From Verrucomicrobiota bacterium (GTDB taxonomy: Bacteria; Verrucomicrobiota; Verrucomicrobiia; Chthoniobacterales; UBA10450), in contig QHNU01000064.1 in NCBI GenBank assembly GCA_003218525.1, forward strand, positions 9,548 to 46,394: DNA of 36,847 bases. Reading direction: 5' to 3'. Under the pieces are notes generated by a model. The model was not told where the DNA came from. It was given only the letters and a program-made list of their open reading frames with translations, and ran no database searches. This document shows positions 11,372 through 29,954 of the stretch, one piece after another. The stretch's first letter is position 1; each line of letters opens with the position of its first letter. The translations under genes and the position numbers were made by a program.

Positions 11372-11908
11372 ATGATTCTTCAGACAGCGCGTTTAATTCT
11401 GCGTCCCTTTGCTGAGAGCGACCTCGACCGCATCGGTGAGCTGATGGCTAATGAGGAATTCATGAAATTCTCGATGGGGCCAATGACACGACAACAAACG
11501 GCGACATTCCTTCAAAAAGTACTTCTATGGAGTCAGGCCGGATTACCCTCGCAATTTGCCGTGATCGAGCGGGAAACTGGCAGCCTCATCGGCTACTGCG
11601 GCTTTCTGCATCAGGAAGTTGACGGCGCCAAAGAAATCGAGATCGGCTACCGTTTGCATCCGGACTTCTGGAACCGCGGTCTCGCAACTGAAGCTGCGTG
11701 TGCTATCCGAGATCATGCTTTCCGTGACTTGCAATTGGAGCGCGTAATCTCGCTCATTCACCCGGACAATCACGCCTCGCGCCGGGTTATGGAAAAAAAC
11801 GGGATGACGATTGAAAAGCGCACCACCTTCCGGGGATTTCCAACCATTGTTTTCTCGATGAACCAAGAAACCTGGCAACGTCAGGTTCGCTCGGCCACCT
11901 GTCGCTGA
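11372..11908 (+). CDS. GNAT-family N-acetyltransferase (RimJ/RimL-like)
   Basis: 178 aa. TARLILRPFAESDLD..., acetyl-CoA-binding-type segment YRLHPDFWNRGLATEAACAIRDHAF, then HPDNHASRRVMEKNGM. The 3' end overlaps the convergent parA by 28 nt. Confidence 0.8.
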   Translation: MILQTARLILRPFAESDLDRIGELMANEEFMKFSMGPMTRQQTATFLQKVLLWSQAGLPSQFAVIERETGSLIGYCGFLHQEVDGAKEIEIGYRLHPDFWNRGLATEAACAIRDHAFRDLQLERVISLIHPDNHASRRVMEKNGMTIEKRTTFRGFPTIVFSMNQETWQRQVRSATCR

Positions 11909-12660
11909 ATGAATTCTTCCGCTAAGGCGCGATAGGCCCGCGCCCCCGTCCCAGCTGCGTCATATTCTAAAATCGTCTTGCCGAAACTGGGCGCCTCGCT
12001 CAATCGCACCGCGCGTGGAATTACTGTTCGATACACCTTTGAGGCGAAATGTTGTCGCACTTCAGCGACAACCTGTGCACTTATTTTGGTGCGGCTGTCG
12101 AACATCGTCATGACGATGCCGCCAATTTCGATTTGAGGGTTGGCGCCCGAATCGCGCACTTGCTCAACGATCCGCACAATTTTTACCAAGCCTTCGAGCG
12201 CAAAATATTCGCACTGAATCGGAGTGAGAATTTCATCCGCGGCAGCAAGCGCGTTGGTCATGAGAATGCCGAGCGATGGCGGACAATCGAGGAATACGAA
12301 GTCAAAAGCATTATCCTGCCGGAGCGGCCGCAGAGCAGTGGCCAGCCGCAGCAAATGATCTTCCATTCGCGCAATCTCCACTTCCGCGCCTGCTAGATCG
12401 ATATTAGCCGGGATGAGGAACAATCGCTCCAATCGCGTCGGAAGGATTTTATCGATGATCGATGACTCACCCAGGAGCGGATCGTAGAGACTCTGCCCTT
12501 CAAACTCCTGCATACCCGTGGAGCTGGTGGCGTTGCCTTGAGGATCGAGATCGACCAGTAAAAGACGCTGGCCCAGCTCAGCCAAAGCGGCGCCCAGATT
12601 CACTGCCGTTGTGGTTTTGCCGACGCCTCCCTTTTGATTGGCAACCGCGATGATTTTCAC
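11881..12660 (-). CDS. soj: ParA/Soj-type chromosome partitioning ATPase
   Basis: 259 aa. Deviant Walker A in MKIIAVANQKGGVGKTTTAVNLGAALA, then LLVDLDPQGNATS, FLDCPPSLGILMTNALAAAD, PIQCEYFALEGL and TVIPRAVRLSEAPSFGKTILEYD. This is close to my recollection of B. subtilis Soj. GTG start overlaps the upstream stop (GTGA). Confidence 0.9.
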   Translation of the reverse strand: MKIIAVANQKGGVGKTTTAVNLGAALAELGQRLLLVDLDPQGNATSSTGMQEFEGQSLYDPLLGESSIIDKILPTRLERLFLIPANIDLAGAEVEIARMEDHLLRLATALRPLRQDNAFDFVFLDCPPSLGILMTNALAAADEILTPIQCEYFALEGLVKIVRIVEQVRDSGANPQIEIGGIVMTMFDSRTKISAQVVAEVRQHFASKVYRTVIPRAVRLSEAPSFGKTILEYDAAGTGARAYRALAEEFIQRQVAERT

Positions 12661-15068
12661 GTTCGCGGAACGACCAGGGTGCGTAGTTCGAACGTGCGAC
12701 GGCCGTCACGTTCCTGCCAGCAAAGATCACTCGGGCCCGGTAACATTTCAGTCACCTCAAGCTCGCCCGCTTTCGTTAACCAACGATGAAAAATTTCCAG
12801 AAAGAGATAGCTCTCAAGATCGATAAACACAGGCTTGGTATCTTTGTCACGGCCTTCCGCCCCACTCCGCCGCAACGCCTGTTCCGTCGGACGGATGTAA
12901 ACGAAGCGCGGCCAGTCCTGTGCCGCGCGCAATTTCTCGACCGCTATGACAAGAGCGCGTGAAATACCGGAGAAATCTCCGGTTCCGAGCTCGCCAGCCG
13001 AAACCGTCCAGGCGCGCCGTTGCACGATCACTTTGCCGCAGCGCAGCCGCGGCATATGGGGTGACAACCCGAACTGAAAAGGATGAAATCCAAGCGGAAT
13101 CACCCAATTACGCGCAAAGGAACCAAGATATTCCTTCGTGCCGCGCTGATGTAGAGCGACATCACCACTTTTCTCATCGATAAAGACCTCTACCTCTGAT
13201 GGTGGAATGCATCTCCAATCCGGGTGCGCACGCTGCCGAGAAACAAAGACCGAACTTTGTGGTAAAGCGTCAAAGACGCGGACTGTGGTGTGCGCAGTGA
13301 AATCGGCAGCAAAGAATCCAAAATGGCAAACCGGCATACCATTAAGCATCGACTCAAGACCCCGCTTCAACGCCGCGGGGTCGGGACAACTCCAATACAT
13401 ACAGTGATGCAAAATGGCGACAGGTGGATGCAATTCGCCGATAATCCACTGATAATCGCCGCCATTAATCGCTTCGATCGAAGGCGCGGCAAGCTGCAGA
13501 TCGGCTGAAGGATACGTGAATTCATCAAATTTCGGATAGTCAAAATTGCGGCGTACGAGGTGACAGTCTTCGACACTTAGCTCGTATTCAGCTCTTGCCG
13601 CGTGGGGTCGCAGTTGTTCCCGAAAGGCTGCTTTAATTTCCTCAAAAGCGACGTGAGCCATCCCGACCAATCCCGGCCCGGTCAGCGGAACTTTGGCAGC
13701 CTCGCAAAAACGCAAAAAGGCAGGGAGTGCGATCGTACCGCCTTTCGACGACGCCTTTCGCAGTAACGCGCGAAGATTCGCTGTGACCCGTGCTGCAACA
13801 TAAGCATACGTGTCTCGCCAGAAATCGATCCACGGTTCTGCTTCCGTTGCAATTTCGTTGATGAGCTTTTGGTTAATTACGAAATGCGTCTTGCGGAAAC
13901 ATTCTTCGGCAATCGGATTGATTGCTGAATAAAGCGACCGTCGCCCAGCTATTGGGTTTGCTCCGACGGCCGCTAGGCGTTCGCTTGCCTCTCTTAAGAT
14001 TTGCTGACGCTGCTCCGTTTTCGAGGAAGCGGCAAATTTACGTGGCAACTCGGCGAGTGAACGGACCATTGGTAACCATCGATCGCGTACTGCACCCGGC
14101 CGCCAATTCGCGACCTCCCTGTGCAGAGCTTCAAAGGCGAAGGGATCGAGCGCGGGAATTTCCGCGGCCGCGACAAGGACTCGCCGGGCAACAAGATCGC
14201 GAATTATGTCAGTGGACTCAGCGAACGCGTACACTGGCGTGTTTCCATCGCAACGTACCAAAACCGCCGCTCCCGAGGCCCCGACTTGATGCGCTTCACC
14301 CGTGTCCGTAAAAATGAAGTTATCGTCGATCATCAGACCAATGGGATTTGGGCGCGGGCGCAACTCGGGAAAAACTTCTGGATCGGAGTTAATCGCCGCC
14401 GCAACTGCATTCGCCGTCCACCGCTCCAGAAATGCATCTCGCTCCGTTATTCCCGGTGCGGGATCGAATTGCACTCCGGCAATCGCCGGATCGATGCGAC
14501 CCCAGCTGGAGGGACCGAATTCGCTGAAGGTATCGTTTTTCGCCGCGACTCGTTGCAAATAAAGGAGCAAATGGCGTTCGCGTTCACGGGCACGTTTGTT
14601 TCGGGGAGAAAGATCAGTTTCGAGCGAATTCAATAGTTGCTGGGCACTGCCGGCACCAAAGATGAGATACGCTGGAAGAAATCGGCGCGAAGCAGCGAGC
14701 AGAGCGAGACGAGACTTCTCGAGGTCGCGCGCTAAGATCTCGTCTAATCGCTGGCCGGCATGCTCAGCCGCCATTAGAGCGCGCCCGTAATCAGATAGCT
14801 CCAATGGGGCATTTGATTCGATCTTCAGGGGCCGGTTGTTCCGCACGGCCCGCCGCAATTCGTGAAAAGTTTCCCGTGTGAACCCAGTGTCGCGACGGCC
14901 AAGAAGGTCTATCGCGGCCGTCTTCGTTCGTTCGAGATTGTCTTGGGTGAAGATTAGTTCCCGGGCAGCGGCAGCGGTGCTTGTGGTCGCGATTCCGTCA
15001 ACCGCGTCGAACGGCACGCCGGCGATTCTGATCAAAAAGAGTGGCGCGATCTCGTAGGTTGCCGACAT
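12657..15068 (-). CDS. Stand-alone LanB-like protein (lantibiotic dehydratase N-terminal / glutamylation-type domain only; split-LanB or PEARL-like)
   Basis: 803 aa. Segments line up with my recollection of NisB/SpaB. N-terminal APLFLIRIAGVPFDAV. aa ~166-190 LLLYLQRVAAKNDTFSEFGPSSWG (compare LanB ...Y..R...RSTPFGLFS). aa ~672-690 MPRLRCGKVIVQRRAWTV (compare NisB IPRLVFDEIVISPAKWKIW). WPRFVYIRP...KPVFIDLESYLFLEIF (compare ...GDNKLYLDL...). The protein ends right where the SpaB_C elimination domain would begin. Confidence 0.6.
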   Translation of the reverse strand: MSATYEIAPLFLIRIAGVPFDAVDGIATTSTAAAARELIFTQDNLERTKTAAIDLLGRRDTGFTRETFHELRRAVRNNRPLKIESNAPLELSDYGRALMAAEHAGQRLDEILARDLEKSRLALLAASRRFLPAYLIFGAGSAQQLLNSLETDLSPRNKRARERERHLLLYLQRVAAKNDTFSEFGPSSWGRIDPAIAGVQFDPAPGITERDAFLERWTANAVAAAINSDPEVFPELRPRPNPIGLMIDDNFIFTDTGEAHQVGASGAAVLVRCDGNTPVYAFAESTDIIRDLVARRVLVAAAEIPALDPFAFEALHREVANWRPGAVRDRWLPMVRSLAELPRKFAASSKTEQRQQILREASERLAAVGANPIAGRRSLYSAINPIAEECFRKTHFVINQKLINEIATEAEPWIDFWRDTYAYVAARVTANLRALLRKASSKGGTIALPAFLRFCEAAKVPLTGPGLVGMAHVAFEEIKAAFREQLRPHAARAEYELSVEDCHLVRRNFDYPKFDEFTYPSADLQLAAPSIEAINGGDYQWIIGELHPPVAILHHCMYWSCPDPAALKRGLESMLNGMPVCHFGFFAADFTAHTTVRVFDALPQSSVFVSRQRAHPDWRCIPPSEVEVFIDEKSGDVALHQRGTKEYLGSFARNWVIPLGFHPFQFGLSPHMPRLRCGKVIVQRRAWTVSAGELGTGDFSGISRALVIAVEKLRAAQDWPRFVYIRPTEQALRRSGAEGRDKDTKPVFIDLESYLFLEIFHRWLTKAGELEVTEMLPGPSDLCWQERDGRRTFELRTLVVPRT

Positions 15069-15116
15069 CCTGGCAACAAACCGAAAGCACGCGAGCGTGA
15101 CAAGTGAAACCGGCTG

Positions 15117-16271
15117 TCAGTCAGCCACGAGCGGAAGGCGTAGTGTGAAAGCCGTACCAACCTGGGGTGTGCTTTCCACTTTGATCGAACCGTGGTGATC
15201 CTCGATTACCTTTTTCGTGATGTACAATCCGAGGCCAGTCCCGTTCTTGCCCTGTTTCGTCGTAAAATATGGCTCGAAAATCTTCGACATTTGTTCCGCC
15301 GGGATACCGTAACCGGTATCTTCCACGCGAATATCGGCGTAAAAATCTTTTGCTACGCAACTGACCGCAACCGAGCCTTTCTTTTCCGCCGAGGCCTGGA
15401 TGGCGTTCATAATCACATTTTGAATCGCGCGCGTAAGTTGGGTCGGCTCACCCAGCACGGTGCACTCCTCCTCACAAATATTGCAATTCAGTTCCACACC
15501 GCTTTCCACGGCCATCCCACCACTGCTTTTGACCACTTCACGCACGATTTGCGAAATCGAAAGAGGCGTCGGCCTCGTTCCGCGGGTACTGCCATAGCTT
15601 TGCCACATCGTCAGGAGGTCCCGGCAGAGGCGGACGTTTTGCTCGATGATGTTCAATTCCCTCGGAGAACTCGCGCCTGCGCCGTTGCTACTTCCGTAAC
15701 CTGATTGCTCGAGTTTCTTGGCCAAAATTTGCACGTATCCCCATACAATCGTGAGCGGATTGCTGAGGTCGTGGACGAATTCGGCCGAGGCCTGCCCTAA
15801 CGACGCGAGATGCTCCTTCTGGGCAAGCTCGCCCATTAATCGTTGATTGAGCTCTTTAATCTCTTGCGCTGCCTCTACGCTTTTGCGGTGAGCGACCGTG
15901 CGTTCGACATTGCGACTGATTACCTCCCGCATTTTCGCGGCGTCAAACGGCTTATTAATATAATCGTTTGCGCCCAGCCGGAGCGCCTCCTGCGCGGTCT
16001 CGAGCGCACCGAAACCGGTAAGCATAATTACGGAAAGGTAAGGATCGATCTCCCGGATCTTGCGCAGGCCATCAATGCCATTGGTGCCCGGCATACGGAT
16101 GTCCATGACGATTGCATCGGGTGCGTTTTCTTGCAGCAACTGCAGCCCCAACTCCACATTATCAGCCGTGTGAACTTGATAATTGGGTTTTAGCAGCATG
16201 CGCAGACTTTCGCGCGGTCCCATTTCATCATCGATAATGAGAACCTTTGGCTGCTCGGCGGTACGGATCAT
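15117..16271 (-). CDS. Cytoplasmic hybrid protein: N-terminal receiver (REC) domain plus HisKA plus HATPase_c histidine kinase
   Basis: 384 aa. REC: VLIIDDEMG...AIVMDIRMPGTNG...VIMLTGFG...NDYINKPFD. Coiled linker. H-box FVHDLSNPLTIV. N/G boxes NVIMNAIQA, EDTGYGIPAEQMSKIFEPYFTTK, GTGLGLYITKKVIEDHHGSI. No TM segment. Confidence 0.85.
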   Translation of the reverse strand: MIRTAEQPKVLIIDDEMGPRESLRMLLKPNYQVHTADNVELGLQLLQENAPDAIVMDIRMPGTNGIDGLRKIREIDPYLSVIMLTGFGALETAQEALRLGANDYINKPFDAAKMREVISRNVERTVAHRKSVEAAQEIKELNQRLMGELAQKEHLASLGQASAEFVHDLSNPLTIVWGYVQILAKKLEQSGYGSSNGAGASSPRELNIIEQNVRLCRDLLTMWQSYGSTRGTRPTPLSISQIVREVVKSSGGMAVESGVELNCNICEEECTVLGEPTQLTRAIQNVIMNAIQASAEKKGSVAVSCVAKDFYADIRVEDTGYGIPAEQMSKIFEPYFTTKQGKNGTGLGLYITKKVIEDHHGSIKVESTPQVGTAFTLRLPLVAD

Positions 16272-16290
16272 GCGAAGTCGGGCGAATGAC

Positions 16291-16307
16291 AGCTAGGGGC
16301 GTGCCCA
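16291..16307 (-). promoter_or_regulatory. Candidate sigma-54 (-24/-12) promoter for the REC-HK / LanB-like / soj operon
   Basis: The minus strand reads TGGGCACGCCCCTAGCT, that is GGCACG-N4-TAGC with the exact GG-N10-GC spacing of the TGGCACG-N4-TTGC consensus. It sits ~20 nt upstream of the ATG at 16271. No enhancer-binding protein is seen in the window. Confidence 0.3.
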
Positions 16308-16591
16308 GTCAAGTGAGAAATTTAAATCGGCAACTCGTAAGGATAACGGAGTGCATTATTTGAGCCGAGGCTAGGCTGTGGCGAAGAATCGACCTTGTGA
16401 ATTGAAGACAAAAATGTGAATAAGTAAGCGGGCAAGGGTTGGGAAATATAATGACCGCATTTAATGTAGATATTAGAATCGGTTACTTTAGCATACGCCA
16501 GTGGCTCCCCCGCTTCCATCCTTAACATTTCTGCCACTTTTCGGCGGGCGCGCACCGGGGGGGCTCTTTCTCTTTTTCTCTGTTATTTGTC

Positions 16592-17833
16592 ATGATTAAA
16601 CGCAACCGCGTCGTCGTAACTGGAATGGGTATCCTGGCGCCTAATGGCATCGGCTTGGAAGCCTTTTGGAAGTCCCTTCTCACCGCCCGCAGCGGTATCG
16701 GCCCAATCACACTTTTCGATGCTTCGAACTTGAAAAGCCGGATTGCGGGCGAAGTGAAGAATTTCGATCCGAGCCAGTACATTGAAGCAGAACTAAAACC
16801 GAAGCGCATGGCACGGCATACGCAGTTTGCTTATGCCGCAACCATGATGGCCTTAAAAGATGCTGGTTTGGATGTCAATAACCTCGATTTGCCAAGTCCT
16901 ACGCCCGTCGTTATCGGCGTCAGTACTAGCGCCATGGATATCATTGAGCGCGGTTTCAGCGACTTCGATCGTCGCGGGCCAGATGGCGTATCCCCCATAA
17001 CACTTAGCGCCTTGTCACCTCAGGCCGCCGCGAACGTGATTGCTGACCGGATAGGGGCTTGCGCACGTGCGGCGACTGTCTCCTCCGCGTGTCCTTCTGG
17101 TCTCGATGCCGTTGCCGTCGCGGCGAATATGATTTTGTCCGGAGAAGCAGAGCTGGCAATAGCGGGAGGGACGGATGCTCCGATTACGAAGTATAGTTTA
17201 GCTGCCTTTATTGTCACAGGACTTAGTTCCTGTCGCAACGGCGATCCGGAAAAAGCAAGTCGGCCGTTCGATCTGGAACGCGATTCTGGCGTAATTTCGG
17301 AGGGCGCCGGAATATTCGTGCTCGAAAATCTTGAGCGCGCACAGGCCCGCGGCGCACATGTCTATCTTGAAATCGGCGGTTATGCGAGACAACGGGACCA
17401 CTCTCCTGAGGATCCAGGATCGGGCCTTGTCGACTCAATGAAGCTCGCATTGGCAAATGCGGCACGAATGACAGATGACATCGATTACATTTCTGCTTAC
17501 GGGCCGGGACATCCAGCCTTGGATTCAGCTGAAGTCCGCTACATCAAAGAGGTTTTTGGAGAACGAGCTTATTCAATTCCCATTAGCTCGATCAAAGGAG
17601 TGACTGGAAACCCACTGTCAGCCGGCGGACCGCTGCAGATCGCGACATGCGCACTGAGCTTCCGTGACCAGACGATCCCGCCAACAGCTAATTACGAAGT
17701 CCAAGATCCGCTGTGCGATCTCGATTTCGTGCCGGATCGCCCCCGAAAGGCAAAAGTGGATTGTGCTCTAGTGAATGTTCGTGGGCTCGGAGGAAGCGCA
17801 AGCACGATGCTGGTGAATCGCATCCCATGTTGA
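16592..17833 (+). CDS. FabF/FabB-family beta-ketoacyl synthase-like protein with a non-canonical active site (Cys-Tyr-Asn instead of Cys-His-His)
   Basis: 413 aa. RVVVTGMGILAPNG and SSACPSGLDAVAVAANMI (Cys retained). ISAYGPGHPALD aligns with FabF NAHGTSTPAGD (His to Tyr). SSIKGVTGNPLSAGG aligns with FabF SSTKSMTGHLLGAAG (Lys kept, His to Asn). C-terminal GLGGSAS. Confidence 0.85.
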   Translation: MIKRNRVVVTGMGILAPNGIGLEAFWKSLLTARSGIGPITLFDASNLKSRIAGEVKNFDPSQYIEAELKPKRMARHTQFAYAATMMALKDAGLDVNNLDLPSPTPVVIGVSTSAMDIIERGFSDFDRRGPDGVSPITLSALSPQAAANVIADRIGACARAATVSSACPSGLDAVAVAANMILSGEAELAIAGGTDAPITKYSLAAFIVTGLSSCRNGDPEKASRPFDLERDSGVISEGAGIFVLENLERAQARGAHVYLEIGGYARQRDHSPEDPGSGLVDSMKLALANAARMTDDIDYISAYGPGHPALDSAEVRYIKEVFGERAYSIPISSIKGVTGNPLSAGGPLQIATCALSFRDQTIPPTANYEVQDPLCDLDFVPDRPRKAKVDCALVNVRGLGGSASTMLVNRIPC

Positions 17834-20361
17834 TAAACAGTGCCGCGGCCCCGACCCTTGCGGCGATAGTCATTCAGCTGGTTTTGGGCTTGGCCGTATT
17901 TCAAGCCAATCCGCGACGCAAATCGAACCAATGTTTCCTGCTGCTCTCGCTCTTCATCGTGATGTGGCTGGGGAGCTTGTATTCGGTTCTCTCAGCAAGG
18001 AGCACTGAAGCGGCGGCGCTTTATATTCGTCAAGCGTCAGCAGCGGCGGCGTTAATTCTCACCGCTGCTAACCTTCTCCGGTTATCGATTCAGAAACAGG
18101 ATCGGAGCTGGGGAGGGATTTTGCGCGACTCATGGCTGTGGCTCATTGCGGCGCTTGCTATCGCGACATTCTGCCAAACAAAGTTCTTTTTACAGGGGGC
18201 GCGCTTTTCACAACCGGCGGGAGCGCTGATTGCGCTACCGGTACCCGTGTATGGGAATGCTTCGGTTGTATATGTCTTCTACTTCGTAATCGCCGGACTG
18301 GCGGTGATCATCAATTATGCGCGTGATGCAAGACAAGCGACGGGTCTTAGACGCGCCGAATTCGCCTTCATTCTTACTGGCGCCGTGGCAACTCTCGGCA
18401 CCGTGCTCGTTGCTTTCAGCCTAGGCTTCTTCCTTGACCGGTCGCGTCTAGTCTGGTTCGCGCCATTTCGGATTCTTCTTTTCAGCCTGATCGTCGCCTA
18501 TGGCATAGCCACACAGAAGATCATGGACGTGGGATTTTTCCTTCGTCGAGCCATGTCCTACGCGCTGCTCACTGCTTACGTCCTAGCGCTCTACGGTTTG
18601 GTTTGGTGGCTGGTTTTCGCCGTCTTCGGTCCACTGGTGCCGGCCAGCGCTAGATCTGTCGCCCATATCACCGCCGCAGTTATGGTGGCTTTTGCCATGG
18701 CGTCAGCTCGCGGCGTCTCGCAAAAGCTGGTCGATCGCCTGTTCGTAGGCACGCGCGGTTTAGATTTTCGAGCCACCGTACAGAAGGCAACTGCTATTTT
18801 GGAATCAGTTACGACTTTGCCCGATCTACTTCGCCGATTCGCCTCTACTATCGCCGAAGCAGTGGGGACGGACAATGTTGCAATCTTTTTAGAGGATCGA
18901 AAAGGTTTTGTGCGGCGCTATTCGAGTTTCAATGGCTCTGCGTTGGATCTCCGACTCGAAATTTCCGCAGACGGCCCGTTGATCACTTGGCTCAAGAATC
19001 ATCGCGAACCACTTATCCTAGACGAGCTTCACCGTAGGCGAGCGACGGCTGCCACGACCGCGATTCGAAAAAGGCTGGAAGAACTCGGAGTCGCTGCTGC
19101 TTTGGGAATTTTTTCTCGTGAGCATCTAGTTGGGGTCATGCTGCTAGGTCCACGCTTATCCGGCCGCATCTACGGCAGCGTCGAACAAGACGCGCTCCAG
19201 ATCTTGTGCGGACAACTGGCTGTGGCGATCGAGAACGCAGAGTTATTTACCGAAGTTCAGAATGCCAAGATTTATAACGAGATTCTACTTCAGAACCTGA
19301 CTACGGGCGTAATCGCCGCGGATGCCGACGGCGGTATATCGGTATTCAATCGTGAAGCGGAGAAGATCACCGGCTTGGACGCCAAGGCAACGTTGGAAAA
19401 GACGATTCGCGATTTGCCCGGTTCTCTATGCGCTATACTGGAAACGACCCTGCAATCAGGTGAACGACAGGAAGACCGCGAGATCTATCTGCGCTCTAGT
19501 TCAGGCGTAGTATATGCCCGGGCAAGTAGCTCGACGTTCCATAGTCAAGATCGTCAATTACTCGGCGCCCTTATCGTTATTACCGACATAACCCATTTGA
19601 AACGTCTCGAGCTTCAAATTCGACGGAGCGATCGATTAGCCAGTCTTGGTACTTTGTCGGCCGGAATGGCCCATGAGATCAAGAACCCGCTCGTTTCGAT
19701 AAAGACTTTCGCTCAATTGCTTCCCGAGCGTTATAGCGAATCCGACTTCCGCGAGACTTTCTCCAACCTCATTGTCCACGAAATCAACCGTATCGACTCG
19801 CTCGTGAACCAGCTTCTTCGTTTTGCACGTCCGGCCAAGCCTTTCCTCCGCCCGATGCGCGTTCATGAAATCCTCGACAAAACCCTGCTGCTCATCCAGC
19901 ACCGCTTGTATCAAAAAGAAATCAAGCTGACGAAGTCGTGGGAGGCGGACATCGATACGACTCGCGCTGATGCCGACCAATTGGAGCAGGTTTTTTTGAA
20001 CTTCTTTCTGAATGCGATGGATGCAATGAGACAAGGTGGCGAGTTAACCGTGACAACAAAAATCCGCTCCGGTGACGTCTTAGTTTCGCAGCTCTCGGCC
20101 GAGGACGAGGAAGCAACAGAAGCATTGTGCATCTCCATTCGGGACACCGGTGATGGAATTCGAGCAGAAGATATTCCGCATGTCTTCGATCCATTTTTTA
20201 CGACGAAAGATTACGGAACAGGTCTGGGTCTATCTGTCGTTCATGGCATTATTGAAGAGCACTGCGGCCAGATCGAAGTCGAAAGCGAACTGAGTAAAGG
20301 CACTGTCTTTCATATTCTTTTGCCGCTGGTTCGTTTTAATCAGGAGGTAGCGGTAGCGTGA
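17827..20361 (+). CDS. Sensor histidine kinase: multi-pass (about 7 TM) N-terminal membrane domain, then GAF, PAS, HisKA and HATPase_c
   Basis: ATG 17827 overlaps the ketosynthase stop (ATGTTGA). The N-terminal ~300 aa are serial hydrophobic helices. GAF-like ...LGVAAALGIFSREHLVGVMLLGPR. PAS LLQNLTTGVIAADADGGISVFNREAEKITG. H-box SAGMAHEIKNPLVSIKTFAQLLPERY. G boxes RDTGDGI...DPFFTTK, GTGLGLSVVHGI. Confidence 0.85.
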   Translation: MLINSAAAPTLAAIVIQLVLGLAVFQANPRRKSNQCFLLLSLFIVMWLGSLYSVLSARSTEAAALYIRQASAAAALILTAANLLRLSIQKQDRSWGGILRDSWLWLIAALAIATFCQTKFFLQGARFSQPAGALIALPVPVYGNASVVYVFYFVIAGLAVIINYARDARQATGLRRAEFAFILTGAVATLGTVLVAFSLGFFLDRSRLVWFAPFRILLFSLIVAYGIATQKIMDVGFFLRRAMSYALLTAYVLALYGLVWWLVFAVFGPLVPASARSVAHITAAVMVAFAMASARGVSQKLVDRLFVGTRGLDFRATVQKATAILESVTTLPDLLRRFASTIAEAVGTDNVAIFLEDRKGFVRRYSSFNGSALDLRLEISADGPLITWLKNHREPLILDELHRRRATAATTAIRKRLEELGVAAALGIFSREHLVGVMLLGPRLSGRIYGSVEQDALQILCGQLAVAIENAELFTEVQNAKIYNEILLQNLTTGVIAADADGGISVFNREAEKITGLDAKATLEKTIRDLPGSLCAILETTLQSGERQEDREIYLRSSSGVVYARASSSTFHSQDRQLLGALIVITDITHLKRLELQIRRSDRLASLGTLSAGMAHEIKNPLVSIKTFAQLLPERYSESDFRETFSNLIVHEINRIDSLVNQLLRFARPAKPFLRPMRVHEILDKTLLLIQHRLYQKEIKLTKSWEADIDTTRADADQLEQVFLNFFLNAMDAMRQGGELTVTTKIRSGDVLVSQLSAEDEEATEALCISIRDTGDGIRAEDIPHVFDPFFTTKDYGTGLGLSVVHGIIEEHCGQIEVESELSKGTVFHILLPLVRFNQEVAVA

Positions 20362-22364
20362 CGCTTTCGCCTGTTTGCATCCTTTATTCTCAAGACGGCG
20401 ATCTGCTGCGGCGAGTCAAAGCGTTCCTGCGCACGATGGCGCAAGTCCGACACGTGGCCGAACCGGATCGTCTCGAGGCGGTTCTGCAACAGGTGGCGCC
20501 TGCCGTGGTCATCATGGATCTGCGGGCAAAAGAATGTCGCGATTTGCTGGAGAAGTTGCAGCAGGATTGGTCCGATTCACTTCTCATTGCGCTTGGCGCC
20601 CCACGTTCTGAACCGCTGCGCGATGCTGAGCAATCTGGGATTTACGCGGCCGAAGATTTGCAATTGGAACGGCGCCGCTTTCAGGCACTAATCGGGCGGG
20701 CGTTTGACTATTTGAACTTAATACAGGCTAATCGAGAACTGCGCGACACTTCACGACAGGTCCCGCTGCCGGATTGGGAGCGCCATTCGGAGCGTGCGCC
20801 GGAACGAGTCTATTCCCCATCGCTTCCGATGCTGCGTTTCGCGCGGGTGTTTCGTCGTTTCGAGGACGTCGAGACGCTCCTCAATAATATTGTGGAACAA
20901 GTGGCAGACGCGGCGGGGGTGACACGGGTGGGAATTTTCTCTCGAATTCGCCACGGCGACAGCTATCGGCTTCGCGCCGGACTTCGGTCTTTGCCCGAAA
21001 CGGACCAACTTGAGTACACCGAACGCGATCCGCTGGTCCGTTGGTTCGAGACCCACGCTCATCTGATTTCGCGCGGCAATCTCGCCCAGCTCGGAGGTCA
21101 AAATCAGCGCATACTCTTGCGCCGCGCTCTCGATAGCTCCGGAGCCGAAGTTATTGCGCCCCTTTACGCGGGAGGCCGCATCATCGGCTGGCTTTTCTTT
21201 GGCCATCGTGTGACCGGACAACCGTTTGGCTACGCCGATTTGGAAGCCTTGACCGTGCTCGCGGAACAGGTCTCTACCGTCCTGGAAAACGCTCTTCTTT
21301 ACGAGGAGATCTCGGTCCAAAAAACGCTCGCTGAAACGCTTCTGAAGTCGATCCCGCCGGGAATTGTTGCGATTGACGAAGGAGGGATCGTGCGATGGTT
21401 TAATTCGCCGGCTGAAAACATCCTCGGCGTCAAAACGGAAGAGGCGCTTAATCGGCCCGTTGAAATTGCGGGGAGCAAGCTCGCGATGATGTTGCGCAAC
21501 ACGCTGGACGCGACAAACAACCTGCCGCCGCAGCAATGGATTGATCCTAATACGCGGCGTTCTCTCTCTGTCGAGACACGCCGACTCGCAGATCGTCGTA
21601 CTTCGCTGGGCGCCGTTGCTGTCATTCATGACCTGACAGCGGAGGAAAATCTCCGGCAGAAGCAGGACCTTGTTGATCGCGCGGCGTTCTGGACTGATTT
21701 GGCCGCGAGCATGTCACACGAAATTCGCAATCCTCTCGTCGCCATTAAAACCTTCGCTCAGCTTCTACCTGAACGATTTGATGACGCTGATTTTCGAAAG
21801 AATTTCACCGATATTGTCGTCCAGGAAATCGATCGACTGGACAAAATCATTACTCAGATCAACTCCTTCGCGCATCCGGCCGAGCTGAATATGAAACCGC
21901 TCGATATCCGGGCTCCAGTGAAGCGCGGGCTCGAATTGGCCCGGACGAAGTTTGGAACGAATGGCGGTGTTCCGGTCGAGACGCAGCTTTCGTCGGACCT
22001 GCCAACCGTTGTGGGAGACGAAGATGCGCTGGCTGAAGCATTCGCTCATTTGGTGGCGAACGCAGCTGAAGCGGTCCGGGATCAAAAGAAACCCCGCATC
22101 GTTCTTTCAGCCAAACCACTTCGCCACGGCGACCGCGGAGGCGGCGTGCTGGTGACAATCCAAGATAACGGGCGCGGCATTGCTCCGGAGATGAAGGAGA
22201 AAGTTTTTTCTCCCTTTTGCACGACAAAGGCGCGCGGAATGGGGCTAGGCTTGCCGATTGTGAAGCGAACCGTGTTCGATCATAACGGGCGCGTCGATAT
22301 CGATACGAGCACGCGCGGGACATCGGTCACCATTGCCTTGCCAGCGAGGGCGAAGTCCGAATAG
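20358..22364 (+). CDS. Soluble sensor histidine kinase: degenerate receiver-like N-terminus, then GAF, PAS, HisKA and HATPase_c
   Basis: GTG 20358 overlaps the upstream stop (GTGA) and follows AGGAGG by 10 nt. The N-terminal ~120 aa are REC-like but lack the acidic pair, T/S and K (see findings). GAF ...GRIIGWLFFGHRVTGQPF. PAS IPPGIVAIDEGGIVRWFNSPAENILG. H-box AASMSHEIRNPLVAIKTFAQLLPERF. G boxes QDNGRGI...SPFCTTK, GMGLGLPIVKR. Confidence 0.8.
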   Translation: MTLSPVCILYSQDGDLLRRVKAFLRTMAQVRHVAEPDRLEAVLQQVAPAVVIMDLRAKECRDLLEKLQQDWSDSLLIALGAPRSEPLRDAEQSGIYAAEDLQLERRRFQALIGRAFDYLNLIQANRELRDTSRQVPLPDWERHSERAPERVYSPSLPMLRFARVFRRFEDVETLLNNIVEQVADAAGVTRVGIFSRIRHGDSYRLRAGLRSLPETDQLEYTERDPLVRWFETHAHLISRGNLAQLGGQNQRILLRRALDSSGAEVIAPLYAGGRIIGWLFFGHRVTGQPFGYADLEALTVLAEQVSTVLENALLYEEISVQKTLAETLLKSIPPGIVAIDEGGIVRWFNSPAENILGVKTEEALNRPVEIAGSKLAMMLRNTLDATNNLPPQQWIDPNTRRSLSVETRRLADRRTSLGAVAVIHDLTAEENLRQKQDLVDRAAFWTDLAASMSHEIRNPLVAIKTFAQLLPERFDDADFRKNFTDIVVQEIDRLDKIITQINSFAHPAELNMKPLDIRAPVKRGLELARTKFGTNGGVPVETQLSSDLPTVVGDEDALAEAFAHLVANAAEAVRDQKKPRIVLSAKPLRHGDRGGGVLVTIQDNGRGIAPEMKEKVFSPFCTTKARGMGLGLPIVKRTVFDHNGRVDIDTSTRGTSVTIALPARAKSE

Positions 22365-24583: not shown

Positions 24584-25003
24584 ATGAACCTATCTTCGGA
24601 AAGCGTCGAGTTTCTCATCGTCGATGATGATGCTCCGCTCTCTGGCTTCTTCCGCGCCTATTTGGAAAGCAAAGGACACAGTTGCTTCGCGATCACAGAT
24701 GCCTCGAGCGCGATCGCTTGGTTACGCGCCAATCATTGTGCAGTCGCAATCATTGATCTCAAAATGCCAAAAATCGATGGCATCTCACTCGTCTCCCTCG
24801 TTCGCGAATTTGATTCCGCGCTGCCGGTCATCGTATTGACCGGCGCCGGCTACGATGAAGACCAGATGCATGCGGCATTGGGTGCCGGCGCTAATGGCTA
24901 CGTCAGCAAGAATCTGCCGGTCGAGCAGCTATATCGCGTTCTTTCGCGCATCCTCGGAACGACGCGCCATCCGGCAGCAGGAGAATTGTTGGGAGCGGCT
25001 TAA
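24584..25003 (+). CDS. Single-domain (CheY-like) response regulator
   Basis: 139 aa. FLIVDDDAPL, AIIDLKMPKIDG, VIVLTGAG and GANGYVSKNLP supply all canonical REC residues. No output domain. Confidence 0.85.
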   Translation: MNLSSESVEFLIVDDDAPLSGFFRAYLESKGHSCFAITDASSAIAWLRANHCAVAIIDLKMPKIDGISLVSLVREFDSALPVIVLTGAGYDEDQMHAALGAGANGYVSKNLPVEQLYRVLSRILGTTRHPAAGELLGAA

Positions 25004-27953: not shown

Positions 27954-28097
27954 TTCGCTAATGTGATAGCAAACAGGAATCGCCGCTCGCGAGATTTTGC
28001 GCCTCCAAAAATTCATCTCCACCCTACCCTTTGGCACGGCAATGCGCGGCACGACAGTTGCACCGCAAATGTGGTAATGTGAGCGTTCTCACGAATT

Positions 28098-29954
28098 ATG
28101 TGCGGAATTGTCGGATACGTCGGGCGATCTGAAGCAGCTCCCATTCTCCTGGACGGGTTACGCCGACTCGAGTACCGAGGCTACGATTCAGCCGGGGTTG
28201 CCATCGTTAATGGCGAAACCATTGAGACGCGAAAATGTGCCGGTCGCATCGCCAATCTCGCGAAATTGATGACGGAGAGGCCGCCGGCGGGGCAGTATGG
28301 GATCAGCCACACCCGCTGGGCTACCCACGGTAAAGTCACCGACGAAAACGCCCACCCGCATTTTGATCACAGCGGCAAGATCGCCTTGGTGCACAATGGG
28401 GTGATCGAGAATTACGCCGCGTTGCGTGAGCAGCTCGTGCGCGAAGTGGGACACAAATTCACCTCCGACACCGACACCGAAGTGCTCGCGCATCTGATTG
28501 GCAGCATTTATGAGCAACTAGATGGCAAGGATTCCAAAGCGCGGCTGGTGAACGCGACCCGCGCGGCGCTGAAACAGGTGATCGGCACCTACGGCATCGC
28601 CCTCGTTCACGCTCATATCAAAGATTTTCTGGTCGGAGCCCGTCGCGGTTCGCCTCTCGTTCTGGGCGTGGGCAAGGATGAGAATTTTCTCGCCAGTGAC
28701 GTCAGCGCAATCGTGGCTCACACTCGCGACGCTGTTTACTTGAACGATTTTGATATCGTCGCCGTTTCGCGGGACACCTTCGAAATCAGCTCGGTCGGAG
28801 GCGATACCGGCAGTTATCAGATCAGCAGGGTCGAATTCGGTGCGGAGGACGTGAATCGAGGCGAGTTCCCGCACTACATGCTGAAGGAAATCTTCGAGCA
28901 GGCGGACTCAGTCCGTGACGCCATGCGCGGTCGCCTCAACACCGAAGAATGTACCGCCAAGCTTGGTGGATTGAACATGACGGCGGCACAGCTTCGCGAC
29001 GTCACTCGGATCGTTCTCACCGGCTGTGGAACGGCGCTGCACGCAGCTTTGGTCGGCGAATACTTGATTGAGCAACTCGCCAGCCTCCCGGTCGAAGTGG
29101 AATACGCGAGCGAATTCCGTCACCGCAATACCCCGATGAGCGGGAATACGCTCGTGTTCGCCATCAGCCAAAGCGGCGAAACGGCTGACACCTTGGGCGC
29201 GTTACGCGAAAGTCGGCGCAAAGGCTATCGGACCCTCGGTATTTGCAATAACGTGGCCAGTACCGTCGCGCGTGAGAGCGACGGCGGAGTTTATATGCAC
29301 GCTGGCCCGGAGATCGGAGTGGCGGCCACGAAATCGTTTACCTCACAGCTGGTGATTCTGACGCTCATCGGGCTGCTTCTTGGCCGCATGCGCCATCTCT
29401 CAACTTCGGAAGGTTCGCTCATCATCGAAGCTTTGGAAGCGCTGCCGGGACAAATCGAGTCTGTCCTGAAGCTGAGCGATCACATTCGCGCGATCGCCAA
29501 AGAATATGTCTCAGTCAACGGTATACTCTTTTTCGGGCGGCAATTCAATTTTCCGATCGCACTCGAAGGGGCGCTAAAGATGAAAGAGATCACCTATCTT
29601 TTCGCCGAGGGTCATCCAAGCGCAGAACTAAAACACGGTATTATTGCCCTCGTCCGGCCTGATCTGCCTTCTGTTTTCATCGCTCCGGATGATGCCGTGT
29701 TTTCGAAAAACCTTAACAACATCGAGCAGGTTAAAGCGCGCAAGGGACCGATTATCGCGCTGACCAGCGGTGACGGTAGGAAACAGTTGAAAGGCATCGC
29801 CAACGACATCATCGAGATCCCGCGCGCTGCGGACGTCGTCACACCAGTCCTCACCGTTATCCCGTTACAATTGCTCGCCTATCATATGGCAGTCGAGCTC
29901 GGACTGGACGTCGATAAGCCTCGCAACCTGGCCAAAAGCGTAACCGTCGAATGA
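28098..29954 (+). CDS. glmS: Glutamine--fructose-6-phosphate aminotransferase (isomerizing)
   Basis: 618 aa. N-terminal nucleophile MCGIVGY, RLEYRGYDSAG, HTRWATHG, two SIS domains (FAISQSGETADT) and the C-terminal PRNLAKSVTVE. Confidence 0.95.
   Translation: MCGIVGYVGRSEAAPILLDGLRRLEYRGYDSAGVAIVNGETIETRKCAGRIANLAKLMTERPPAGQYGISHTRWATHGKVTDENAHPHFDHSGKIALVHNGVIENYAALREQLVREVGHKFTSDTDTEVLAHLIGSIYEQLDGKDSKARLVNATRAALKQVIGTYGIALVHAHIKDFLVGARRGSPLVLGVGKDENFLASDVSAIVAHTRDAVYLNDFDIVAVSRDTFEISSVGGDTGSYQISRVEFGAEDVNRGEFPHYMLKEIFEQADSVRDAMRGRLNTEECTAKLGGLNMTAAQLRDVTRIVLTGCGTALHAALVGEYLIEQLASLPVEVEYASEFRHRNTPMSGNTLVFAISQSGETADTLGALRESRRKGYRTLGICNNVASTVARESDGGVYMHAGPEIGVAATKSFTSQLVILTLIGLLLGRMRHLSTSEGSLIIEALEALPGQIESVLKLSDHIRAIAKEYVSVNGILFFGRQFNFPIALEGALKMKEITYLFAEGHPSAELKHGIIALVRPDLPSVFIAPDDAVFSKNLNNIEQVKARKGPIIALTSGDGRKQLKGIANDIIEIPRAADVVTPVLTVIPLQLLAYHMAVELGLDVDKPRNLAKSVTVE

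Follow-up and report, generated by a model that had tools for sequence, protein, structure and literature searches.

To our knowledge, PEARLs and LanB-like enzymes are known only from peptide or hybrid natural-product pathways, where the scaffold peptide is encoded alongside. The ATP-grasp-like residues of TglB are reportedly E542, E801 and R803. The kinases AtoS and ZraS partner regulators of the NtrC family. For BhaB7, the residues described are Y205 and R208 (tRNA CCA), R429, D558 and E575 (Mg), R715 (adenine), and E813-x-R815 (ATP and carboxylate) (PMC11962472), and a LanB-like amide ligase has been described that acts on a non-ribosomal product in a nonribosomal peptide synthetase-polyketide synthase (NRPS-PKS) pathway (PMC10769383). 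Here we describe a locus of a Verrucomicrobiota bacterium (contig QHNU01000064.1) in which the gene for a LanB-like protein stands between those for a receiver-bearing histidine kinase and for ParA. The window analyzed is a 36,847-nt stretch of one contig, taken from a 2.43-Mb metagenome-assembled genome (MAG) that is 79% complete. Our preferred reading, to which we give a probability of roughly 0.6, is that of a family-specific kinase module under the control of sigma-54 and an NtrC-type activator, with a PEARL-like ligase as cargo and with transcription continuing into a resident parA gene.

Three genes make up the minus-strand half of the locus. The first encodes a soluble REC-HisKA-HATPase histidine kinase of 384 aa (REC-HK; positions 16271 to 15117), the next the LanB-like protein of 803 aa (15068 to 12657), and the last a Soj-type chromosomal ParA of 259 aa with a GTG start (12660 to 11881). 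Pfam searches identified REC-HK (Response_reg, 1e-28; HATPase_c, 7e-27; the HisKA match is weak) and ParA (AAA_31, 1.7e-57, with CbiA), the latter also by NCBIfam. An earlier inspection of this DNA made without database searches, the sequence-only reading, had proposed these three open reading frames (ORFs) as an operon, and the ORF and Pfam analyses agree with its gene calls. The spacings that it gave were confirmed, with 48 nt between REC-HK and the LanB-like gene and a 4-nt GTGA overlap of the LanB-like stop with the parA start. It had seen no convincing terminator after REC-HK, and indeed the terminator-like hairpins in the region numbered 6 against 6.1 in shuffled sequences, i.e. no excess, while the 48-nt spacer folds no better than its shuffles (z = 0.66). 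As would be expected of an operon, the three genes are co-directional, their junctions are short or overlapping, and their adjacency is conserved.

On the plus strand, three further genes point away from these. They encode a ketosynthase (FabF)-like protein, KS-like (16592 to 17833), recognized by alignment to Thermus thermophilus FabF (1J3N); a membrane GAF-PAS histidine kinase, HK1 (17827 to 20361); and a soluble GAF-PAS histidine kinase, HK2 (20358 to 22364), both kinases being identified by Pfam and by synteny, which for HK1 is invariant. The ATG assigned to HK1 at 17827 overlaps the KS-like stop, the longest possible HK1 ORF beginning at 17713, and the start of HK2 in turn overlaps the HK1 stop. 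The domain HisKA_7TM is annotated on an ortholog of HK1.

Synteny was examined in 51 species-level loci and two metagenome contigs, each judged as far as its contig reaches. In all of them the order HK2-HK1-KS-like, then divergently REC-HK-LanB-like-ParA, was invariant. The genes for REC-HK, the LanB-like protein and ParA were adjacent and co-directional in every one of approximately 48 species-level relatives whose contigs cover them; the sequence-only reading had made co-occurrence in other genomes a test of its proposal, and the adjacency proved universal in these relatives. The LanB-like homologs come from MAGs of soil Chthoniobacterales (Verrucomicrobiota). Within a single GTDB family the gene was found in 168 of 201 genomes, in 97 of the 114 that are of high quality, and in 31 of 36 genera. 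No genome from the other families of the order carried it in a sample of 301 genomes of the order, and a search across the phylum gave one weak match among 400 genomes. The module is thus restricted to one family of the Chthoniobacterales.

A sister genus in the same family, g192, is informative with respect to the extent of the module. It lacks the LanB-like gene and orthologs of REC-HK and KS-like, having only FabF paralogs of at most 40% identity in place of the latter, and the two sensor kinases HK1 and HK2 are missing from the region around its parA gene. REC-HK orthologs are present solely where the LanB-like gene is present, KS-like orthologs of more than 57% identity occur only in genomes carrying that gene, and HK1 and HK2 belong to the same invariant block as KS-like. 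Since g192 retains parA but is without REC-HK, the LanB-like gene and KS-like, the set of kinases, KS-like and LanB-like genes behaves as a unit gained or lost as a block. The real module therefore consists of two divergent predicted operons, KS-like with the two sensor kinases on one side and REC-HK with the LanB-like gene on the other.

The sequence-only reading had described the product of the second minus-strand gene as LanB-like, and the predicted structure bears this out, showing the LanB glutamylation fold. The Pfam match, to Lant_dehydr_N, is modest (1.8e-17, 63 bits) and covers only the N-terminal part of the domain (profile positions 18-292 of 649); no NCBIfam family was matched. An AlphaFold2 (AF2) model was obtained with a pLDDT of 75 and a pTM of 0.72. 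When this model was used as a Foldseek query, the top 11 matches were all of the LanB type (TbtB, GodF, MibB, NisB, MadB), as was every match at E <= 1e-9; the best were TbtB at 1e-17 and GodF at 7e-16, with TM scores of 0.55-0.60. TbtB was also the only sequence match in the PDB (E 7e-8). There is no elimination domain in cis, as Lant_dehydr_N is the only such domain in the 803 aa, and a search of 8 genomes of the family, run without a positive control genome, detected no Lant_dehydr_C (PF14028).

A search of 1.84 billion representative proteins returned 1,931 LanB-like relatives at E <= 0.001, of which 157 were at E <= 1e-30. In 45 full-length relatives, with identities as low as 21%, 17 residues are invariant: R173, K177, G185, P186, E388, D523, E545, P673, R674, R684, P720, K745, D750, E774, P777, E794 and R796. 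In the alignment with TbtB, Y170-L-Q-R173 and the K177 after it fall on YVAR..K, and Y170 is conserved in at least 90% of the relatives. The Tyr-x2-Arg feature of the helix that binds the tRNA 3'-CCA end is thus present. By spacing, Y170-x2-R173, R392, D523, E545, R684 and E794-x-R796 can be placed on the BhaB7 residues listed above. The nearest relatives outside the family (34-44% identity) occur either in tandem LanB-N arrays or next to genes for a BBE oxidase, a PLP decarboxylase and an M20/M28 peptidase, contexts that look like pearlin-type clusters; REC-HK, KS-like and ParA were not found near them. From the predicted fold and the conserved residues, we regard the protein as a PEARL-like putative ligase dependent on ATP and aminoacyl-tRNA. 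Variation within the family includes several genera in which the ORF is shorter (~670-760 aa) and lacks the counterpart of residues ~233-300. In the model these residues form three strands plus helices and could match a peptide-recognition (RRE-like) element. In one genome the gene contains four in-frame stops and is probably a pseudogene.

A sigma-54-type -24/-12 element, tGGGCACGCCCCTAGCt, is located at 16306 to 16291 on the minus strand. It has the GG-N10-GC geometry and lies 20 nt ahead of the REC-HK ATG, so that the observation of the sequence-only reading, GGCACG-N4-TAGC with exact -24/-12 geometry ~20 nt before the ATG, was correct. The element was found by footprinting in 41 of 42 orthologous intergenic regions, at 19-24 nt before the REC-HK start in 40 and at 14 nt in the remaining one; only 0.4% of shuffled regions contained a match. 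The family consensus is C-GGCAyG-N4-TAGCT, in which GG and TAGCT are invariant and C-GGCAyG nearly so, and in which the N4 spacer and the flanks vary. Genomes without the module do not have the motif upstream of parA. Taken by itself, this genome has 8 copies of the strict motif, with ~9 expected by chance. The genome contains rpoN (432 bits, cut-off 277) and four Sigma54_activat proteins of more than 215 bits, three of which are REC-AAA-HTH proteins of the NtrC type and one of which has no receiver. The sequence-only reading had considered sigma-54 control possible and had suggested looking for rpoN and enhancer-binding proteins; with both found, and with the phylogenetic footprint, such control is now strongly backed at the level of sequence. 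Sigma-54-like sites 14-20 nt before start codons were also seen elsewhere in the genome, ahead of a PilT-like gene (C95), a gene for a TPR protein (C77) and a response regulator gene (C57), which hints that sigma-54 transcripts in this organism have very short leaders. In the window itself, a near-consensus -24/-12 element, GGCACGACAGTTGCA (28048-28062, plus strand), lies ~35 nt before the glmS start at 28098.

Further upstream, at 16394 to 16423 (minus strand), a block conserved in the 42 intergenic regions contains the direct repeats TTATTCAC...(T/C)(T/A)ATTCACAAG, followed by a CACAAG..CTTG half-palindrome. The TTATTCAC pair is ~90-118 nt upstream of the -24 element, which is a typical distance for an enhancer, and no other such pair in the genome lies ahead of the sigma-54 motif. 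We consider these repeats a candidate enhancer (upstream activating sequence) common to both divergent promoters. The promoter of the KS-like/kinase operon is predicted by a promoter scan to be a sigma-70-like sequence, ATGACC-17-TAGAAT, at 16451 to 16479 on the plus strand; both hexamers are inside blocks conserved across the 42 loci.

A second conserved non-coding element precedes the LanB-like gene. This leader motif, cTTGTCA-N12-TTTsGkTTTGCTG-N4/5-start codon (15069 to 15103, minus strand), retains rigid spacing in all 48 loci, including those in which the gap between REC-HK and the LanB-like gene, 38-512 nt across relatives, is 139-512 nt. The alignment revealed no consensus RNA structure. 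In its geometry the motif would suit a -35/-10-like promoter that fires at the start codon, though the '-10' is poor; it may drive a leaderless transcript as an internal promoter, or may equally serve as an operator. An internal promoter here would explain how a housekeeping parA gene can lie behind an activator-dependent promoter. The idea that a general promoter type underlies either the leader motif or the TTATTCAC repeats was rejected, as both are unique to this locus in the genome.

The sequence-only reading had taken the product of the first gene to be a kinase with a receiver as its input domain. Receiver and kinase core are intact, and their signature residues D14, D15, D57, T85, K107 and H167 do not vary among 46 orthologs. 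The kinase core has its best NCBIfam similarities to AtoS and ZraS. The module has three kinases and no output regulator. A candidate for this role is an NtrC-type protein encoded on another contig (C280:2344-3708) directly upstream of rpoN, the pair occupying C280:2344-5781, and no kinase gene adjoins it. Its orthologs, at 83-89% identity, were found in 3 of 3 module-bearing and 0 of 2 module-free genomes; across the family its conservation is unusually high (identities of 77-97%), and g192 lacks it. When the 201 family genomes were scored for activator and ligase, 155 had both, 13 only the ligase, 7 only the activator and 26 neither, the mismatches including incomplete MAGs. The presence of the other three activators (C112, C201 and C91) does not track the module, and they were set aside. 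A CheY-like orphan receiver of 139 aa without an output domain (24584-25003, plus strand), ~2 kb past HK2, is a possible phosphotransfer partner for the kinases of the module. The C-terminus of HK1 (20320-20361, plus strand) reads ...(E/K)V(A/V)AA in every one of the 35 orthologs seen, a sequence reminiscent of an ssrA-like 'AA' end, and no other protein of the module has a conserved C-terminal tail. The coding sequence of the HK1 tail overlaps the ribosome-binding site and ATGA/GTGA start of HK2, which partly explains the conservation, but the Ala codons vary synonymously.

The product of parA is the only ParA in the genome and has a deviant Walker A motif, NQKGGVGKTT (KGGxGK[ST] class). Exactly one ortholog was found in each of nine other genomes across the class, with 53-74% identity. 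The g192 ortholog (73%) lies beside the same GNAT and UDG genes, with LpxD, GlgC and GlmS on the other side. The parB gene is on another contig (C282:1516-2442, minus strand) with no parA alongside, and no parB was found within 10 kb of parA in the eight other genomes of the class whose flanks were examined. With one parA per genome and no parB nearby in the class, the split of parA and parB is therefore normal for the lineage. In 34 of 48 loci, the LanB-like and parA genes are joined by an ATGA or GTGA overlap or by a gap of at most 4 nt. Another 13 of the 48 have 127-510 nt between the two, filled with GC-rich palindromic repeat elements, and both genes are kept; the coupling is therefore ancestral but dispensable. 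The inserts are long GC-rich inverted repeats resembling REP or MITE elements, and similar insertions enlarge the gap between REC-HK and the LanB-like gene in some of the same genomes. The sequence-only reading had treated the three minus-strand genes as one functional unit, and this part of it was not supported: ParA is the sole, resident protein of its kind, and its gene stays beside the GNAT and UDG genes in g192 without the kinase, LanB-like and KS-like genes. The gene is a resident neighbor that was probably drawn into the transcription unit and does not define the module. This corrects the apparent tie to chromosome partitioning, parA being merely a neighbor.

The substrate of the LanB-like protein was sought in the vicinity. 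The 77-codon ORF at 16555-16322 was rejected as a precursor: its tblastn similarity reflects conserved DNA blocks, the closest relative has a broken frame, and the alignment gaps do not come in threes. No small ORF is conserved in the enlarged gaps between REC-HK and the LanB-like gene, and the 36.8-kb window contains no LanC cyclase, azoline-forming enzyme or precursor peptide. KS-like aligns over its full length with FabF; in place of Cys-His-Lys-His it has Cys167-Tyr303-Lys335-Asn340, so that both catalytic histidines are replaced while Cys167 and Lys335 are retained, and there is no variation at these four positions among 41 orthologs. The loss of both histidines argues against a normal decarboxylative condensation. 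Given the NRPS-PKS precedent cited above and the co-variation of the KS-like gene with the ligase gene, a small-molecule carboxylate is a plausible substrate. Two other possible assignments were rejected. The FBA gene is not a member of the module, as it encodes the sole class II aldolase of the genome and is substituted by another gene in one relative, and PADLOC gave no meaningful matches to anti-phage defense systems.

We therefore picture a lineage-specific signaling module of a soil Chthoniobacterales family, fixed directly upstream of the resident chromosomal parA gene and organized as two divergent units with a common conserved control region. One unit would be transcribed from the probable sigma-70-like promoter and would supply KS-like, with its Cys-Tyr-Asn triad, together with HK1 and HK2. 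The other would be transcribed from the sigma-54 promoter through REC-HK and the PEARL-like ligase and, in most species, straight into parA. The sensor kinases would phosphorylate the receiver of REC-HK, the orphan NtrC-type activator encoded beside rpoN, or both. The activator would bind the TTATTCAC repeats ~100 bp upstream and open the sigma-54 promoter, giving more REC-HK (a feedback), ligase and, as a passenger, ParA. The ligase most likely adds an amino acid to a carboxylate by means of ATP and aminoacyl-tRNA. Its substrate would be encoded elsewhere, candidates being the C-terminus of a peptide or protein, or an acid produced by the KS-like enzyme. A tentative extension, which we offer as speculation, is that a PEARL-type ligase has been recruited into a signaling circuit. 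It would then either aminoacylate the C-terminus of a signaling protein, such as the ...V(A/V)AA end of HK1, or with KS-like make an acyl-amino-acid-type signal sensed by the kinases of the module, with the sigma-54 feedback coupling this signal to parA expression.

Several observations weigh against this picture. The -12 element is TAGC and not the consensus TTGC, and the predicted leader of ~8-12 nt has no Shine-Dalgarno sequence. In a check for RNA, the stretch was present in DNA soil metagenomes only, and three metatranscriptomes of the same study gave only 30-nt matches, to conserved parA from other organisms. The co-loss of activator and module rests largely on g192 and three small, incomplete genera. 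Since the genomes with neither gene are mostly g192, only a few evolutionary events are reflected, perhaps 1-4, and the Fisher p-value for the association carries no correction for phylogeny. The agreement with BhaB7 is a positional match and not an alignment to a characterized PEARL. The neighborhood (kinases, KS-like, ParA, GNAT and UDG) offers no scaffold or precursor, peptidase or tailoring gene. Lastly, if the leader motif is a promoter, the ligase and parA genes may not depend fully on sigma-54. Of these points, those on the promoter raise the alternative that GGCAyG-N4-TAGCT is the site of another factor or part of a 5' leader, with a sigma-70-type start further upstream. Besides its deviant -12 element, its unusual nearness to the start codon would agree with this, as would its chance frequency within this one genome and a weak sigma-70-like match on the minus strand at 16384-16355. 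We nevertheless judge it unlikely, because GG and GC never change and are always exactly N10 apart despite variation in the N4 spacer and flanks, the genome has rpoN and activators, conserved repeats lie at enhancer distance, and other sigma-54-like sites of this genome are likewise found 14-20 nt before start codons.

The bare neighborhood can also be read as a minimal or cryptic natural-product pathway, pearlin or RiPP-like, whose scaffold peptide and tailoring genes are elsewhere and for which the kinases are merely regulators. The BGC-like contexts of the closest relatives outside the family fit such a pathway, as do the adjacent, co-varying KS-like gene and the LanB-like enzymes of NRPS-PKS pathways (PMC10769383). 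This explanation is possible but doubtful: neither the control region nor the gaps between REC-HK and the LanB-like gene contain a conserved small ORF, the conserved block has no peptidase, oxidase or transporter, and a single-copy, vertically inherited gene found in 31 of 36 genera is unlike the usual patchy antibiotic clusters. A true triad, in which the LanB-like enzyme and the kinase have ParA as their specific partner, whether as substrate, as positioning ATPase or as cell-cycle output of the phosphorelay, would account for the tight junction in 34 of 48 loci and for an adjacency that is universal wherever the module exists. It is harder to reconcile with a ParA that is the only one in its genome and has a one-to-one ortholog in every genome of the class checked, with the retention of parA among its GNAT/UDG and LpxD/GlgC/GlmS neighbors in the module-free g192, with repeat elements that part the two genes in 13 loci at the cost of neither, or with a ParA C-terminus that is not conserved, and we think it quite improbable. 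Least credible of all is a catalytically dead LanB-like protein with a structural or scaffolding role. The weak, N-terminal Lant_dehydr_N match, the missing NCBIfam match and the loss of residues ~233-300 in some genera would be compatible with it, but the 17 charged or structural residues that do not vary even in relatives of 21% identity include the E-x-R, D, E and R expected for handling of ATP and carboxylate, and the full-length fold is retained in the model. We therefore retain the sigma-54-controlled kinase module with a PEARL-like cargo as the best account of the locus.

On that account, a ligase gene is inherited vertically and kept almost universally by a large soil family of Verrucomicrobia, and among its neighbors are genes for three histidine kinases and an aberrant KS-like protein. 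If the enzyme is active, tRNA-dependent amide-bond chemistry would serve regulation or physiology in abundant, uncultured soil bacteria, and enzymologists would gain a PEARL that acts on a novel type of substrate. The sequence-only reading could match the combination to no described system, and a literature search likewise found no description of it, nor any paper linking Udaeobacter, Verrucomicrobia or ParA with LanB-like genes.

The closest described enzymes are the PEARLs TglB, BhaB7 and AmmB ('small LanB' or LanB-C). Like them, the protein described here has ~800 aa with the fold of the glutamylation domain alone and no elimination domain, a Tyr-x2-Arg helix, a C-terminal Glu-x-Arg, and Asp, Glu and Arg at positions that, judged by spacing, would correspond to those of BhaB7 and TglB; its outgroup homologs are in pearlin-like clusters. 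It differs in that no scaffold peptide, peptidase or tailoring enzymes are encoded nearby, and in that the gene is single-copy, vertically transmitted through a whole family, and part of a kinase module with a sigma-54-type promoter, overlapping parA. TbtB and GodF, the split LanB proteins of thiopeptide and goadsporin biosynthesis, are the best structural matches, but these need a separate elimination-domain protein and a precursor peptide, neither of which was found here. The same applies to the LanB dehydratases of class I lanthipeptides and thiopeptides: no elimination domain or partner, LanC, azoline enzymes or precursor was found at this locus. SnaE of Stackebrandtia nassauensis (PMC10769383) is similar in that a LanB-like enzyme is encoded beside a condensing-enzyme gene and not beside a ribosomal precursor. 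Here, however, the condensing enzyme is a free-standing FabF-like protein with Cys-Tyr-Asn, and the block contains no NRPS/PKS megasynthase, carrier protein or adenylation gene. With respect to regulation, the locus resembles the NtrB/NtrC and ZraS/ZraR circuits in its GG-N10-GC promoter, its repeats at enhancer distance, the AtoS/ZraS-like core of its kinase and a candidate NtrC-type REC-AAA-HTH activator. In contrast to those circuits, the kinase is gated by a receiver of its own, the divergent genes supply two more kinases, the gene of the candidate activator lies elsewhere, beside rpoN, and the cargo is a putative tRNA-dependent ligase together with parA. The kind of enzyme is thus a known one; what is new is its place in a signaling context, away from any precursor gene.

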